A stretch of DNA of 58,898 bases from an uncultured bacterium (GTDB lineage Bacteria; Verrucomicrobiota; Verrucomicrobiia; Verrucomicrobiales; DEV007): the NCBI GenBank assembly GCA_963977015.1, contig CAXBMO010000032.1, positions 1 to 58,898 of the forward strand. Direction: 5' to 3'. How positions within the stretch are numbered: the first letter of the stretch is position 1; the number at the start of each line of letters is the position of its first letter. Positions 1-6,000 of this stretch are shown one piece after another. The position numbers are program-made.

Positions 1-3000
1 AAACAGTCCAGCCAGAAACAGTCCAGCCAGAAACAGTCCAGCCAGAAACAGTCCAGCCAGAAACAGTCCAACCAGAAACAGTCCAACCAGAAATGGGCTG
101 AAAGCCCAACCGCGCAAAGCACAGGGTTTCAACCCTGTGTCAATGAATCCCAAACGGGATGCGGCCTGAATGGCCGCCCGCAGTCGCCCGATCAACCCCA
201 AAGATACCGCTCATCAAAATCGACTTGATACTTCTTCAAGAACTTCAGGTATTCCTCCTGAAAGGTGGTGACCTTGTGATGTTCTTTCTGGTTTCGAAGA
301 TAGCCCATCGCGACGTCAAGATCGGGCGGACTAACGCTGAACCAGCCATACCCCACCTGCCACGCAAACTTCGGACGATCTGAAAAGGTCGAATTGATCC
401 AACGCGACGAGTCGCCTTTCAGTTGGCTCATGAATTCCTGGTCCGCGACCATTTTGGACTCCCTGATCAAGAGGTGGACATGATCCGGCATTCCACCAAT
501 TTCGAGAAGACTCCCTTCCAGCCGTCGGATGATTCCGCCCATGTATTCGTACAACCTGGACTCGATTTCACCAGTAATCATCGGTTCCCGATTCTTCGTG
601 GAGAACACGATGTGTCCATAGGTGCAGTGTAGTGACTGTGGCATGGTTGATGATGATTGGTCGACTGCTGGCGACCTGTCAGGCCGCGATCTTTGCTGAA
701 TCCGATTTCACAGGGTTGAAACCCTGTGCTTTGTGCGGATGGGCTTTCAGCCCATCATTGCCTAACGCTACTTCCTGGTCCCGCAGGATGCAACTGCCTT
801 GGTTTTTGCCGAAAGTAAATGGCGGCGAACCTGTTTACGCAGGCCCGCCGCCGGGGTTGAAGGTTCCGATTAAAGTTCCATCGCTTCGATTTGATGGAGA
901 AGCGCGCTCTTGTCCTTTTCGAGGAACATGAGCGTTTCCATCGTCTTATCCGAAAAGCCTGCGAGCGCGTAAACGCCGCGTTCCGGAAATTGAAGCGATC
1001 CGTAACCAGCCAGATCAAAGCTGTAGACACGAGGACGGTTTCCCGCCTTCTTGACATAAGCTTCGAAGCTTTCGGTTGGCGTATAATATCCCATCCAGCC
1101 CTGCATATCAGAGAGGATAACGACGCGATCGTAAGCCTTCCGAGCCGTTTGGAAGATCGCGTGGAAGTTGGTTCCGGCGAACCGGGCCTTTTCTTCCATG
1201 CGTTGCGCCAGACTCAAGGTGCTATCATCACGGTTGAAGGTCTTGAACTCGGCGATATCGCTGAAGAGCATGAGATCCGCATCGTTGGTCTTGTAAAGGA
1301 CCGATGCAAAGAGCGATCCGATCTTGATCGGATTTCCATGCATGGATCCGGAACTATCCAGCGCGATCAACGTACGACCTTCGAGCACCGGAACATTCTC
1401 CAATGCAAGATCGACAGCCTTACTGAGCGCACGAATCACCTTTTGGCGATTTGGCAAATCAGTCGCCTGTTCCACGGCATCCAGAGCGGTGCGGAAGCGG
1501 AACGGCAGCACGAGCGACTTGCGGATCAACCGCGGATCCTGCAGCAACGCAAGCGCGTCATCGACGACGTCCGGAGACTGTTCGAGGATGTTGCGCAGGT
1601 TGCGAAGCAGCGCGAAGTATCCGATCTTGCGACTACGAATGAGGTCCGCCCAGGCTCCCGCCTTACGACCAGCCTTGTCTTCGGCATTCTCCGCTTGTTG
1701 ACCAGCCTGCGTCAGCTTGGTTTCCCAGGTTTCCGCCGGCTGAAGCGTTCCCGCCATCAACTGCCCCAAAGCTTGGGTGTGCGGAGGGTGAAGCAGGTTC
1801 ACCGCATCCACCAGCTTGAGTTCAGCACCTTCGCGCCGGTACTTGGCCAGTTGGTAGGCATCGAACCGGGTCAGGGCTTGGCCCAATCCCTTCTTGAGAG
1901 AGTTTGGCAAGGGCTTTCCATGGACCGCCATGTGGTAGGCCAGGATTTCGAGAACGTCATCAACGCGGTAGACCACGCGATCGAAGAAGCGACGCGTCCA
2001 ATCGGCACCCTTGACCTGGTGCGCCAGTTCCCCGGCGACCAAGTGGCTGACCGAACGCATCCCTGCTTCACGACGAGCATAAAGCGCCGCCTTCGCGACA
2101 AAAGGCTTGTCGTTGATCTCGCGGATCAGTTCCTGGAGCCGCTTTGCGGAATCACCCGCCTTGCGGTAGTACTGGTTTTCCAGGAAACAGGTGAGGAGCA
2201 TGGTCACCAGTTCGAGCTTGGCGCTCTGGGTGAAGGCCTCGCCACCTGCCAGGTTGATGGTTGTCGATTCTGTTTGCTTTTGTCTTTTCAGATTGAACTT
2301 CATGAGGTGGTCGGACCTCCTTTCTAGTTAGGGTTGTTGGAAAACTCCCTTCGCGAGCAACGAAGGAAGAAGTTGAGAAAGGATCGGAGAGAAAACCGGT
2401 CGGGGTAATAGCTCACCCAATGTGGATGAATTCGTTTAACAGACGAAGGAACCCCAACCTCACTACTCCGAAATGGGTGGAGGGAAAGGTCACTCTGGAG
2501 AATGCCGGAAGGAGACACAATACCGTGCTCTACCAACTGAGCTATCTCCCAAGAACCTTGGGAGAGTGGGACTCGAACCCACGACCACGCGCGTCGAAAG
2601 CGAAGGAACTCCTCGCCTCACTGCCAGAGTGATTTTATTTCCCAGGAAAGAGGTCACGCGAAGAATAGTGAACCGGGCAAAGTTGTCCGGTCCAAAAAGG
2701 CGGACCGGGCAGGAGTTGAACCTACTAATCTGAGCGCGTCAGACGTACACCGAAGTATCCCAGATTCTCGCTATCGCGTGTTTTAAAAAAGGCTGAGCAT
2801 CCGAGCATGGATTCGAACCATGATTCTCGCCTTCAAAGGGCGATGTCCTTCCGTTAGACGACTCGGATGAAAGAAGAAAAATCGGTCTGGAAGGACTTGC
2901 ACCCTCAACCTGCCGGGTAAGAACCGGATGCTCTCCTAACTTGAGCTACAGACCGTTGTCGTAGCCACGATTGGTAATCGTGGTATGAATTCGAGTGCCA

Positions 3001-6000
3001 CTCGAATCTACAAAGGCGGAGCTTTGAGGACTTGCACCCCATGCCTCGTTTTCGCGAGGCACCATTCGTTTAGCAAACGACTCCGACACGCTTGTTCGGT
3101 TAAAACTCCAATCGAAATACCAAGTGCCCGTAGCAGGATTTGCACCTGCACTGAACCGCTTTTGAGTCGGCTGCCTCTGCTGTTGGGCTATACGGGCGTT
3201 TCGTTGCAAAGAAGTGCTCACGGAAGGATTCGCACCTTCAACTCCTCGGTTTTAAGTCGAGTGCCTCTGCTCTTGGGCCACGTGAGCCTGCTCATTCGTC
3301 GACCCGGTGGGAATCGCACCCACGTCCTCTCGCTTATAAGGCGAGCGCTCTCACTGCGCCTGAGCTACGGGTCAAAAGGTAGAACGGTACCCACGACAGG
3401 ATTTGCACCTGCAACCTTCCGCTTCTAAAACGGACGCCTCTGCTATTGGGCTACGTGGGCCAATGTCAATTTGATGAACGTTCCACCGGTCGGTGTCGCA
3501 CCGACATGGTCTCCTTTACGAGAGGAGTGCATTGCTGACTTCTGCCACGGTGGATAAATGGAGTTTGTAGGCACTCCCGGTAGGACTCGAACCTACAACC
3601 TGATGCTTCGAAGGCACCCGCTCTTCCAATTGAGCTACAGGAGCGAAAAGAAATCTAATCAATACGGGATGGAGGATTCGAACCCCTCGACAGCCAACCC
3701 ACAGTTTATGGTCGACACGTTAGAAGCATGTGGTGGGAACATCCCGCGTAGCCACGACTGGTAGTCGTGGTTTGAAATTCGAGTCCCACTCGAATCTACG
3801 ACTAAAAAAATAGGGGCTGAAGGTAACGCTCCCTCGTCTCCTGTGTGTAAAACAGGCGTCCTACTATTGAACGAAGCCCCCATCACTATGATCATGTGAG
3901 GAAGTATCCCGGGAGGGATTTGCACCCCCAACCTCTGCGCACTCAACACAGCGCCTCTGCTGATTGGGCTACCGGGACATTGGGGCCAACGGCGAGTCTC
4001 TCACTCGCATCTTCCGACTTACAAGGTCGGCGCACTTCTCTGCCACGCTGGCGTCTCAAAAGAAAGCGGTGCGCCGTGCCGGTGCTGCCCCGGCTCCTCC
4101 TGTTTGGAAGACAGACGTCCTAGCTGGTAGACGAACAGCGCTTCAAGGTGAAAGAATGCCCGTGCGGGAATCGCACCCGCCACACTCTGGGTTGCAACCA
4201 GGCCGGTTCACTAGCTCCGGTCACGGGCGTCTTCCGAGAAAGGGTTGATCGACGGGATTTGCACCCGCACCGCAACCTTCACAGGGTCGAATGCTAACAT
4301 TTACACTACGATCAACATCTCTGGATTCAATACCACTACCAAGAGTCCCCCCGGTGGGTAACGCTCCCACTTCTGCGGTTTAAAAGACCGCTGCATCACT
4401 TTAATGCTTCGAGGGAAGAAGTGATGGATTTCTACCTATCCCCGCCAGGATTTGCACCTGATCCGACGCCTTCGCACGACGCCATGCTTCTCTTACACTA
4501 CAGGGACAACTCCATTCGCTACCGCCAAAACGCCTCATGCCGGTTACGCTCCGACTCAACCTGTTCGACAGACAGGCAGGCTACTATTACATCAATGAGG
4601 CTTGTTGAAGAAGTGGCTGGCTCCGGAATTGCACCGGGCTCTCGTCGCCTTCAACGACACGCTAATCTGTCTCAGCTATCCAGCCTTTGAATTCCCGAAA
4701 TCGTCCTGGATGGTAACGCTCCACCGTCTACCGGTTATCAACCGGTTGCTCTGCTTTTGAGCTACAGGACGCGAAAGAAAGGCACCTCCGCTTGGACTCG
4801 AACCAAGCTCGCGAGGCTTAACAGGCCTGCTGCACACCCGGTGCATTCGAAGGTCAAAGAAGACTCGGGGGCGGGAATCGAACCCGCGTGAAAGGCGGCT
4901 TATGAGGCCCCTTCGAGACGCCAACGCTCTCCCCGAAGAATGGAAATGTTCGAACCAAGATACGGGCCACGGAGGTCCTGCCCCCCAAACGCAGGACTAC
5001 TGCGTTCAATCCGTTTTCAAGACGGTTCCGGCACGCTTGTCCGGTTCGGGACCCATGTCTCTTTGGTTGTGAAAGGTAGGTCCTGGTGGAATCGCACCAC
5101 GCGTCGACTTTCGGCTTCTTTTATGACAACGGTTTTACAGACCGCCAGCCGAGGCAGGACCTATGTGAAAGAAATTGGCAAGGCGTGGGGGAATTGAACC
5201 CGCCGTTCCCAGACTGAAAACCTGGTGTCCTAGCCATTAGACGAACGCCTCATTTGGAAAAATGGAAATGGGAGGTCCTGGTAACGCTCCAGGCATCCAG
5301 GGTTATGAGCCCCGGGGCAGAACTTTCTGACCTCCAATCTGCTGATTGCGTCGCGGTGGTAGGACTCGCACCTACTTCCTGAGACTTCCAAGGTCCCTAT
5401 CTCGACTACTTCGACCTCACCGCGAAAACTGGTATGGAGACACTCGGTAACGCTCCGAGTCCTGCTGCTTGCAAGGCAGCCGTGCTATCTTTTATCACTA
5501 TGCCCCCAAAGAATGGCAGACTGCGAGAGAATCGAACTCTCTAAGCGCAAGGTTTGGAATCTTGCCGCGACACCCACTCGCCGACAGTCTGCATTGATAC
5601 TTCTTTCCACAATTCTCTGAAGCATGAAGGGAACTTCCAAGCCTGACGATTCATCACGGATTCTTCACGCGTGAACCCATGTGATTTAGAAGCGGCATGC
5701 TGTTGAGCGCGCCGCCGTTTCAATATTTGGATTTGGGTTCCGGGAAGAGGAAGGATGGAATCGAACTGATGATCCGTTCTACCTTCGCTTCAGAGAAAGA
5801 CGAACACCGTTACCGATCGTTACTCGGTAGCCGCAGGTTTTCACAGACGGACGTTTCGGTGTCTAACAGGCACACCTCCCTTACATAGAAGCCTCTTGGG
5901 TTGCCATTCCCAAGAGACAAACACTTTCCGTAACACGATTCGAAAATGGTGTGATCCGGTTGACCAAGTTGAAGACTTGTATAAATTAGAAACTTGTAGG

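Follow-up and report, generated by a model that had tools for sequence, protein, structure and literature searches.

The window, a 58,898-nucleotide stretch of DNA from an uncultured bacterium of the Verrucomicrobiales, carries a dense tRNA gene array on its minus strand between positions 2797 and 5590: 26 genes and an added 27th, tRNA-Gly(UCC) at 4071-4141, which brings the number of credible genes to 27 in 2.8 kb. A single strand carries every gene, the spacers are mostly 7-100 nt long and the anticodons cover about 20 amino-acid specificities. Within this interval ARAGORN called 18 tRNAs with default settings, all on the minus strand, and 25 with -ps90; -ps80 added tRNA-Pro(UGG) and a doubtful long-arm tRNA-like call (5075-5162, minus strand, T loop TGCGATT) that is kept outside the 27. 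Rfam reported 17 tRNA matches above its gathering score, Pro (5351-5424) among them; 10 of the 27 genes lie below that score. tRNA-Gly(UCC), missed by ARAGORN and Rfam, was read from the sequence, and its minimum-free-energy fold is a cloverleaf (z -2.7).

Downstream of the array and on the same strand lies a gene for a Ro60/Rsr-like protein with a TROVE domain (870-2303; Pfam PF05731, E 6e-21). Between the two is a YrlA-like (Y RNA) module that resembles a tRNA and has a canonical T loop (2524-2589, minus strand; Rfam RF02553, 39.6 bits, E 2e-6, below the gathering score of 69), where ARAGORN also made a pseudo-call (2558-2626). A 13-bp terminator-like hairpin follows the Ro60 gene (821-852, minus strand; consensus scan only) and is a possible end of the unit. 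At the contig end, an IS200-type Y1 transposase gene (192-644, minus strand; Pfam PF01797, E 9e-26), of a type present in multiple copies in the genome, probably interrupts the island.

Elbow states of the array tRNAs

Six array genes, called by ARAGORN like all those below unless stated, combine a canonical T loop with GG in the D loop: tRNA-Trp(CCA) (5514-5590; TTCGATT, CCA encoded), tRNA-Glu(UUC) (5176-5251; TTCAATT), tRNA-Met(CAU) (4862-4937; TTCGATT), tRNA-Asn(GUU) (4781-4854; TTCGAGT), tRNA-Arg(UCG) (3570-3644; TTCGAGT; also Rfam, 66 bits) and tRNA-Gln(UUG) (2797-2868; TTCGAAT). A TGC loop is found in tRNA-Pro(UGG) (5350-5424; ARAGORN -ps80 and Rfam, 45 bits; TGCGAGT), tRNA-Phe(GAA) (4613-4685; TGCAATT, D loop ..ACAGATTA), tRNA-Arg(GCG) (4436-4508; also Rfam; TGCAAAT, D loop AAGAGAA), tRNA-His(GUG) (4242-4315; TGCAAAT, D loop AAATGTTA, with U in place of A before G19; G-1:C73 retained), tRNA-Cys(GCA) (4154-4230; TGCGATT, D loop AGCTAGTGAA), tRNA-Thr(CGU) (3480-3554; TGCGACA, D loop ..GTCAGCAA), tRNA-Ile(UAU) (3298-3374; TGCGATT, D loop AGGCGCAGTGA), tRNA-Ser(GCU) with its long variable arm (3015-3109; TGCAAGT, D loop ACAAGCGTG) and tRNA-Lys(CUU) (2882-2955; TGCAAGT, D region ..AAGTTAGG.., its D loop AGG assigned by homology). 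The same loop type occurs in four short (type I) leucine tRNAs, with anticodons GAG (3904-3978; TGCAAAT, D loop CAATCAGCAGA), UAG (3386-3460; TGCAAAT, D loop CAATAGCAGA), UAA (3214-3287; TGCGAAT, D loop CAAGAGCAGA) and CAA (3124-3197; TGCAAAT, D loop CAACAGCAGA). The AGC loop characterizes tRNA-Ala(UGC) (5434-5508; also Rfam; AGCGTTA, D loop ..AAAAGATAG; G3:U70 and A73 retained), tRNA-Met(CAU) (5268-5337; AGCGTTA), tRNA-Ile(GAU) (4701-4771; AGCGTTA, D loop AAAAGCA), tRNA-Asp(GUC) (4531-4601; AGCGTAA, D loop AATAGTA), tRNA-Lys(UUU) (4345-4416; AGCGTTA, D loop TAAAGTG) and tRNA-Val(UAC) (3810-3882; also Rfam; AGCGTTA, D loop AATAGTA). tRNA-Thr(UGU) (3981-4052) represents a third elbow type, with T loop TGAGAGA (A56) and D loop GAGAAG, and the added tRNA-Gly(UCC) has the loop GGCAGCA (G54, G55, G58) and D loop ACCAGCTA.

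The 27 T loops comprise 13 TGC, six AGC, one TGA, one GGC (the added Gly) and six TTC, and the tally of the earlier note for 26 genes was recovered identically from the 25 ARAGORN calls and Pro. The D loops of the array's G55 genes carry AG, the exceptions being His (UG), the ambiguous Met at 5268 and Lys-CUU (AGG by homology). Elsewhere in the genome all 41 default calls, one of them a dubious '???', have TTC, as the earlier note had claimed. In a relaxed scan (-ps85; 1762 candidates), xGC loops on a perfect T stem numbered 16 within the array and 19 beyond it; all of the latter were broken or odd cloverleafs, which upholds the restriction of G55 loops to the array in this genome.

Covariation of positions 18 and 55 and of 54 and 58

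The claim that G55 is coupled to A18, and that the same rule operates elsewhere, was borne out in 20 related arrays and in IMG/VR loci, the latter chosen by T-arm sequence alone; the two sets were fetched and parsed independently. Among tRNAs of fixed geometry (4-bp D stem and 7-nt D loop, with 18 and 19 as loop bases 4 and 5), relatives plus window gave 56 A18G19/G55C56, 14 G18G19/U55C56 and one C18/G55 (n = 71), and viral contigs gave 103 GG/UC, 35 AG/GC, three GA/UU and one GG/CC (n = 142, of which 106 are G/U at 18/55), with no mixed case in either set, counts that overstate the number of independent events because related arrays share ancestry. When position 18 was assigned by an identity-blind rule, 175 of the 225 G55 tRNAs of relatives plus window were classed as 'only A-G', against 62.7 +/- 6.7 (maximum 80) in 500 D-loop shuffles; the viral contigs gave 140 of 170 against 45.6 +/- 5.7. 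A few G55 tRNAs retain GG, both candidates being present in 4 of 225 and 3 of 170, respectively. One viral His tRNA has C18, and outside the geometry-fixed subset mixed cases are rare, for instance a Leu-CAG with CAACTGGAAGA and TGCAAAT. Measured from the 5' end, AG peaks where GG does in canonical tRNAs. Thirteen disjoint homologue pairs (at least 75% identity, 11 anticodon families) contrast GG/U55 with AG/G55 in 12 cases and with CG/G55 in one. G19 and C56 are retained in every G55 class that was counted, and A19 occurs together with U56 in three viral tRNAs.

Detection bias could not have hidden mixed states, since single deviants outscore double deviants and the latter were found in hundreds. 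The absence of intermediates is consistent with a yeast suppressor tRNA that is described as inactivated by single mutations in G18-U55, G19-C56 or U54-A58 (PMC4117946). In the relatives, A57 rises from 6 of 67 U55 tRNAs to 117 of 225 G55 tRNAs, a shift towards the riboswitch optimum UGHAA.

The association of A54 with U58, also put forward earlier, likewise recurs in relatives and viral contigs as a swap of U:A for A:U: of 302 tRNAs in relatives, 221 are U:A and 62 are A:U, and of 860 in viral contigs, 713 are U:A and 110 are A:U. This swap is a module separate from 18/55, as it is also found with U55 (ATCGTTA).

Conservation and distribution of the variant

Compared with the array of a congener, the array genes are 95.2% identical and the spacers 63.9%, and compensatory changes are seen in the acceptor stem of His and the T stem of Thr-UGU. 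The discriminator base equals that of the housekeeping tRNA in 14 of the 18 tRNAs drawn in standard register. Judged from this comparison, purifying selection on the array genes is strong, and the genes look functional, given their conservation, the compensated stems and the identity elements that they keep. It is hardly credible that the deviant genes are pseudogenes left by the decay of a formerly canonical array. Several do score poorly with Rfam (37-45 bits), ten go unreported at the gathering score, and 3 of the 26 genes of the Anabaena L-array are considered pseudogenes (PMC8421152); yet decay is contradicted by the conservation pattern and the compensated stems, by changes at 18/55 and 54/58 that are coordinated rather than random, and by the recurrence of the same states in 20 genomes and in viral contigs.

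The flanks differ between related arrays; an HNH homing-type endonuclease adjoins 10 of 20, Ro60 occupies the equivalent position at 5 of 20, and no dedicated factor was found consistently encoded in the array flanks. The proximity of Ro60 and a YrlA-like RNA, directly downstream and on the same strand, together with the description of Y RNAs as tRNA mimics (PMC4201824), would suit G55 genes that encode tRNA-shaped RNAs for a purpose other than translation, for example partners or decoys of this surveillance module. We consider such a role very unlikely, given full anticodon loops for about 20 amino acids, retained synthetase identity elements, the lack of Ro60 at 15 of 20 relatives and at all but one viral locus in the stretches fetched, and the wholly canonical state of the Ro60-linked arrays of Bacteroidota (27 tRNAs).

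In the window's family the variant occupies roughly 60-90% of the genes per array (20 loci). Most viral arrays, whose viral status is as assigned by the database and whose array neighbours gave HNH, methyltransferase and unknown PHROG matches only, contain one or two G55 members amid canonical ones; a Nostoc array has 23 canonical tRNAs to one deviant. The five cultured phage records inspected contained no G55 tRNA, and a literature search found no prior description of this elbow variant. We consider it rather less likely than not that the variant is neutral, an equally stable elbow drifting in only where the G18/psi55 constraints on housekeeping tRNAs (TruB and TrmA chaperone/modification circuits, fine-tuned kinetics) are relaxed and accessory tRNAs of arrays and phages escape them. 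The sparse viral members, the canonical Bacteroidota and Nostoc arrays, the presence of both elbow states among close homologues of 11 anticodon families and the want of a consistently adjoining dedicated factor agree with drift; dominance in array after array of the window's family and maintenance by strong purifying selection do not, nor does the count of 0 of 41 housekeeping genes, into which a neutral variant would be expected to leak over time.

A proposed alternative elbow

T loops outside tRNA, known from riboswitches and other RNAs, are reported to follow the consensus YGNRA and to take up an intercalating base, nearly always an A, that is held to the sugar edge of the position-2 G by two hydrogen bonds; tRNA, with UUCRA, is presented as the exception (bioRxiv 10.1101/2022.12.26.521914). 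On the elbow anatomy described in PMC4810234 and PMC7912444, U-G-C-R-A would replace U-U-C-R-A in the array tRNAs, and A18 would replace G18 as the D-loop base slotted between 57 and 58 and pair with G55, while the retained G19:C56 would preserve the outer face on which the ribosome and RNase P stack. The tRNA-specific UUCRA and G18 would give way to the generic solution of UGNRA and an intercalated adenine, so that the elbow called rebuilt in the earlier note is, in our reading, a swap for a known alternative. The AGC class (A54...U58) departs from YGNRA at positions 1 and 5, and the proposed geometry accounts neither for that class nor for the UGA loop of Thr-UGU.

Chemistry precludes pseudouridine 55 in G55 tRNAs and m5U54 in the A54 class. 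Selection for independence from elbow modifications (pseudouridine 55, m5U54, Gm18), by which newly made tRNAs of arrays or phages would fold rapidly whatever the host and when modification enzymes are limiting, is conceivable, and we hold it unlikely. These modifications are described as mainly stabilising (PMC7912444), the host encodes TruB and one U5-methyltransferase-family gene and presumably modifies its own tRNAs, the differing flanks and HNH endonucleases suggest mobility between genomes, and the Anabaena L-array is induced under impaired translation (PMC8421152). However, with TruB present almost everywhere, portability by itself gives little cause to avoid U55, and six genes of the same array remain canonical. 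Less likely again is evasion of proteins that recognise or cleave the canonical T loop (toxins, defence nucleases, competitor weapons), the array serving as a nuclease-proof back-up set in parallel to the anticodon-loop mutations by which phage tRNAs reportedly evade anticodon nucleases (PMC10264068). A tRNase that cleaves within the T loop, between T and psi, has been recorded (PMC9086364), tRNA arrays have been termed putative anti-defence systems (PMC12803027), and the same arrays hold leucine tRNAs of the short type I and further shapes that depart from those of the host; against this, no defence system directed at the T loop is known in these hosts or was found beside the arrays, known defence tRNases are described as targeting anticodon arms (PMC13056530) and every array keeps canonical members.

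Our preferred reading, to which we assign a probability of about 0.7, takes the region for a long tRNA array (L-array) that has spread horizontally and whose alternative elbow is structurally equivalent to the canonical one. The Anabaena L-array, in which 23 of 26 tRNAs are aminoacylated in vivo (PMC8421152), provides a precedent, with charging shown there and predicted here. The array would supply a near-complete second tRNA set to a Verrucomicrobiales-type genome, with about three quarters of its members carrying the alternative elbow; these tRNAs would be expressed, adopt the normal L-shape without the precluded modifications, be charged and serve translation.

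Gene content of the tRNA array

The window is the complete contig C32 of a 6.9-Mb genome (G000) in 51 contigs, and its array packs 27 tRNA genes into 2794 bases (2797-5590), all on the minus strand and with a spacing that fits co-transcription. Its neighbours, by Pfam, are IS200, Ro60, sulfatases and PVC-type DUF1552/DUF1592 proteins. Forty firm tRNA genes outside the array, distributed over 24 contigs, cover the amino acids, which makes the array supernumerary. The tRNA at 3298-3374 (minus strand) has the anticodon UAU (Ile, AUA codon), the housekeeping ARAGORN calls for this amino acid being Ile-GAU only. 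A promoter scan of the window stayed at chance level (3 found, 3.4 expected). An element of approximately 55 nucleotides with two hairpins is repeated at 90% identity in the spacers 2960-3012 and 3747-3803; contigs carrying related arrays join directly across both sites without it (joints 2956-3012 and 3747-3804), and it may be a small insertion element.

ARAGORN called 18 tRNAs in the array at default settings and 25 at -ps90, a -ps80 run adding Pro-UGG and one doubtful call with a long arm. With Rfam RF00005, 17 of the 27 genes, Pro included, scored at or above the gathering threshold of 29 bits (37.7-66.2 bits), the remainder being unlisted or matching tRNA-Sec under threshold. Gly-UCC (4071-4141, minus strand) was missed by both programs and found by reading the sequence; it is among the three of four folded array stretches whose minimum-free-energy structure is the cloverleaf. 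Gene finders thus under-call such array tRNAs (18 of 27 for default ARAGORN, 17 of 27 at the Rfam gathering score), which biases the numbers of tRNAs counted in arrays and phages. A further tRNA-like stretch at 3656-3745 was dropped, as it folds no better than shuffled sequences (z -0.13).

Textbooks list G18, psi55 and T54 among the nearly invariant bases of tRNA. The array genes conform to the RF00005 cloverleaf (an acceptor stem of 7 bp, the D, anticodon and T arms, and an anticodon loop of 7 nucleotides) but depart from its elbow set (G18, G19, U54, U55, C56, A58). U55 is missing from 21 of the 27, which also show no G18-G19 pair where one is expected. Apart from Thr-UGU, all retain G19 and C56. 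We obtained the same T-loop counts as the earlier note, namely 13 UGC, 6 AGC, 1 UGA and 6 UUC, to which Gly-UCC adds a GGC loop. The restriction of G55 to the array within this genome was likewise borne out: 41 of 41 default calls elsewhere have TTC, and a relaxed scan yielded no credible G55 tRNA outside it. Thr-UGU (3981-4052, minus strand) represents a third elbow type, U54-G55-A56 (TGAGAGA or TGAAAxC), also present in the related-genome arrays L031, L038, L040, L042 and L048; it has a 6-nucleotide D loop and no obvious partner for A56, and it is conserved, with compensatory T-stem changes.

Covariation at the elbow positions

The earlier note had proposed that G55 goes together with A18, and this association was upheld in two independently retrieved sets. 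The first consists of 20 regions from related genomes, retrieved with array DNA, plus the initial 9 kb of the window (309 ARAGORN calls, 305 unique). The second comprises 252 IMG/VR viral loci chosen solely by a T-arm 11-mer and an encoded CCA; 180 of these loci yielded 951 tRNA calls (869 unique). By a crude criterion, the D loop contains GG in 69 of 69 U55 tRNAs from the relatives; their 227 G55 tRNAs (UGC, AGC, CGC and GGC loops) have AG without GG in 206 cases, GG somewhere in 16 and neither in 5. The viral counts are 648 of 655 U55 tRNAs with GG and, among 170 G55 tRNAs, 153 with AG without GG, 15 with GG and 2 with neither. Counted from the 5' end, AG in the G55 tRNAs falls where GG does in the canonical ones.

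Naive pairwise alignment of each tRNA to its nearest U55 homologue was ambiguous for position 18 because a lone G could be placed in either column 18 or column 19, and was therefore replaced by an identity-blind rule for position 18 and a geometry-fixed test. A MAFFT alignment of 64 seeds misplaced some 8-nucleotide D loops, and its stems, perfect by selection, are uninformative on stem integrity. Under the identity-blind rule, 175 of 225 G55 tRNAs from the relatives and 140 of 170 viral ones were assigned 'only A-G', against maxima of 80 and 62, respectively, in 500 shuffles of the D loop. The geometry-fixed test was confined to tRNAs whose D stem has 4 bp and whose D loop has 7 nucleotides, a geometry that sets positions 18 and 19. 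Among 71 such tRNAs from the relatives and the window, 56 are A18G19/G55C56, 14 are G18G19/U55C56 and one is C18/G55; among 142 from viral contigs, the corresponding canonical class numbers 103 and the swapped class 35, the others being three with A19/U56 and one G18G19/C55C56. Neither set contains a mixed tRNA, in which one of the two positions is canonical and the other swapped, and position 18 of the G55 tRNAs is A in 56 of 57 and 35 of 35 cases, respectively. The lack of mixed states is not a detection artefact, since the gene finder would score single deviants above double ones. The 18/55 double change is exactly what separates the members of 13 disjoint pairs of close homologues, from 11 anticodon families, so the pattern is not one inherited accident. 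The three viral tRNAs with U56 match it with A19.

Positions 54 and 58, for which the earlier note had described an exchange of U:A for A:U, do covary in this manner: U:A and A:U account for 221 and 62 of 302 tRNAs from the relatives and for 713 and 110 of 860 viral ones. Minor classes (G:G, C:A and A:A) occur as well, and A54-U58 is accompanied by A60. The A54:U58 swap is also found with U55 (ATCGTTA, 41 viral tRNAs) and is therefore independent of that at 18:55. Further loop classes in the viral and related loci are GGCGGAA (G54-G58; compare GGCAGCA of the Gly tRNA in the window) and C54-A58. Position 57 is A in 117 of 225 G55 tRNAs and 6 of 67 U55 tRNAs of the relatives.

Gene integrity and a putative elbow geometry

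Decay into tRNA pseudogenes is ruled out by the comparison of the window with the array of a congener, in which genes are 95.2% identical and spacers 63.9%, and by compensatory double changes in the acceptor stem of the His tRNA and the T stem of Thr-UGU. Identity elements are kept as well (G3:U70 and A73 in Ala; G-1:C73 in His), and 14 of the 18 tRNAs drawn in standard register share their discriminator base with the housekeeping isoacceptor. The G55 genes are thus probably working tRNAs with an A18-G55 elbow, their expression, charging and use in translation being predicted from sequence.

A structural precedent for such an elbow comes from RNAs other than tRNA. The T loop is described in PMC4810234 as a general five-base motif: its second base is stacked on the first, its third makes a pair to the outside, and a partner contributes the base that fills the space between the fourth and the fifth. 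Another study (bioRxiv 10.1101/2022.12.26.521914) gives the consensus outside tRNA as YGNRA, with UGHAA as the form that functions best. Almost every inserted base is an adenine, joined by two hydrogen bonds to the sugar edge of the G at position 2; tRNA is the exception, with UUCRA and G18. At positions 1-5 of the T loop, this consensus fits the 13 TGC genes of the array (UGCRA), and is missed at one or more positions by the six AGC genes (AGCGU), the Gly gene (GGCAG) and Thr-UGU (UGAGA). UGCRA loops with A18 would match the general T-loop solution exactly, and the shift to A57 would go in the same direction. The elbow would accordingly be held by A18-G55 in place of G18-psi55, and the outer face formed by G19:C56, which the L1 stalk, RNase P and T-boxes use, would be left unchanged. 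With G55, psi55 is out of reach, and so is m5U54 for the A54 class, in a genome that encodes TruB and one protein of the U5-methyltransferase family. The restriction to matched 18/55 states would be accounted for by the effect of single changes at these pairs, which inactivate a yeast suppressor tRNA (PMC4117946).

The same features are found in the T loops of FMN and cobalamin riboswitches and of other structured RNAs (YGNRA/UGHAA), which like the array loops begin with U and G and have a purine followed by A at positions 4 and 5. The riboswitch loops take up a partner-loop adenine in the 4/5 gap and form a Watson-Crick pair at position 3, whose counterpart in the array would be C56:G19, in a geometry predicted from sequence. 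Unlike in the riboswitches, the motif of the array sits inside working-type tRNAs, which otherwise have UUCRA and G18, and the AGC class, with A at 1 and U at 5, lies outside the riboswitch-type consensus.

Non-standard elbows in functional tRNAs, with deviations from T54-psi55-C56 or from G18G19, are familiar from the eukaryotic initiator tRNA (A54/A60), tRNAPyl and many mitochondrial tRNAs. The combination of A54 and A60 in the initiator recurs in the AGCGTTA class of the array, and PMC7912444 remarks on A54-A58. These precedents are either individual tRNAs with a special task or the reduced sets of organelles, whereas the array presents a whole elongator set in a free-living bacterium with one defined pair swap. 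Another precedent is the type I tRNA-Leu of Streptomyces coelicolor, the charging of which is insensitive to deletion of G18/G19 or U55/C56 (PMC6614811). It resembles the short Leu tRNAs of the window (CAA 3124-3197, UAA 3214-3287, UAG 3386-3460 and GAG 3904-3978, minus strand), which have a 5-nucleotide variable loop and no long arm, but has a canonical elbow; by this analogy, charging of the short Leu tRNAs of the array is plausible.

Several explanations can be considered for the persistence of the variant. Ranked first of four is a neutral alternative elbow under relaxed constraint, a possibility that we regard as doubtful although ahead of the others. The second, freedom from elbow modifications, is rather unlikely. 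Escape from proteins directed at the T loop ranks third and appears less likely still, one tRNase that cuts the T loop being on record (PMC9086364). The fourth, a non-translational role tied to the downstream Ro60 and YrlA-like module, draws on the position of this module immediately downstream of the array and on the presence of Ro60 likewise in five of 20 related arrays, and seems improbable. A bolder reading, to which we would give a probability of approximately one in five, is that A18:G55 and A54:U58:A60 constitute a second natural tRNA elbow, competent in translation and blind to T-loop enzymes and readers, which would provide a modification-independent, attack-resistant spare set on mobile arrays and phages, switched on when host tRNAs are damaged or limiting.

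The Ro60/TROVE gene (870-2303) and the YrlA-like tRNA mimic (2524-2589) lie on the same (minus) strand as the array; the related arrays listed with Ro60 in the same position are L031, L037, L038, L046 and L049. In Bacteroidota MAGs (Aureispira, Saprospiraceae), too, Ro60 genes come after tRNA arrays, and these arrays are canonical. A congener's array carries a second EF-Tu gene between its G55 tRNA genes (L032:8815-9999; G001:C16:127814-128995), which shares 66% identity with that genome's housekeeping EF-Tu, whereas G000 and G002 have the housekeeping copy only. Genes for GNAT (Acetyltransf_3, RimJ/RimL-like) and SPFH/Band 7 proteins recur inside or beside several related arrays (L037:5194-6159, L038:9390-9914, L048; L032:6158-6937, L035, L036, L037, L039).

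Related arrays, mobility and significance

Array DNA matches 47 of 61 relatives, many of these being weak matches to a single tRNA; the strong ones come from the family to which the window belongs and from two genomes that represent other families of the order. The G55 pattern of the short Leu tRNAs was present in one of 401 genomes sampled across the phylum, G000 itself. Related arrays are present in marine, algal and biofilm metagenomes (contigs from four runs). Flanking genes differ among related arrays, which may reflect horizontal spread; vertical descent within the family is an alternative. One family of HNH endonucleases accompanies the arrays in 10 of the 20 relatives (L031-L050) at 64-74% identity and in 10 viral loci at 30-42% identity, including L055, L123, L170, L208, L217, L233, L236 and L249. 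In G000 the gene is found at C10:195321-195902, with a C-terminal fragment at the very start of another contig (C19:55-255); it is absent from the window, whose contig ends after IS200. Because of this fragment, the island may continue on C19 past IS200. IS200-type transposases stand at both contig ends (192-644, minus strand; 58263-58706), at least nine related copies occur elsewhere in the genome, and they probably cause the assembly breaks.

The array resembles the L-arrays of Santamaria-Gomez et al. (PMC8421152) in being long, on one strand and supernumerary, and shares with known long arrays the dense same-strand arrangement of more than 20 supernumerary tRNA genes; it may also share their patchy distribution and, through its relatives, the HNH neighbour. 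It differs in composition, the Nostoc array having 23 canonical genes to one with G55 among 24 calls and that of the window 21 non-canonical genes of 27. The lone G55/AG gene of the experimentally studied Anabaena/Nostoc trn operon, on pCC7120delta of Nostoc PCC 7120 (NC_003273; L315:2507-2584), has the anticodon CUC, the T loop TGCAACT and the D loop AAATAAGATAA. In this array 23 of 26 tRNAs are charged in vivo, according to PMC8421152. The homologous short Leu tRNAs of the Nostoc PCC 7120 array, Gordonia phage Keelan and the Aureispira array all have GG and UUC, unlike those of the window; in a common D-loop frame, the short type I Leu tRNAs read CAATTGGCAGA in Nostoc and CAACAGCAGA in the window.

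The array has its deviant tRNAs in common with tRNA clusters of IMG/VR contigs, which lie beside HNH endonucleases and methyltransferases. Its flanks, unlike those expected of a phage cluster or a prophage, are free of phage structural or replication genes. PHROG searches with 24 ORFs beside the viral arrays returned HNH, methyltransferase and unknown families and no hallmark gene. The five cultured-phage records inspected (DSS3P8, Asesino, Keelan, Xoo-sp13 and vB_AbaM_P1) contain no G55 tRNA and some A54 loops, for example ATCGAAA. When the array and two viral loci were compared by BLAST with 50,697 phage records, most matches were to canonical tRNAs, and a plasmid search gave only two weak matches.

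A full-text literature search, with subscription journals outside its scope, found no description of A18/G55 tRNAs, and the passages searched in two tRNA-array surveys make no mention of the T loop, T arm, G18 or U55. Both the arrays and the RNA motif are known; within the literature searched, their combination is so far unreported for tRNA. The 18/55 swap offers a ready-made, orthogonal-looking scaffold for engineered tRNAs. A whole elongator-type set that drops G18, psi55 and T54 by one clean, repeated pair swap amounts to a natural experiment on the purpose of the canonical elbow and its universal modifications, on which of TruB, TrmA, RNase P, the synthetases, the ribosome and nucleases truly need that elbow, and on why housekeeping tRNAs never adopt the alternative.
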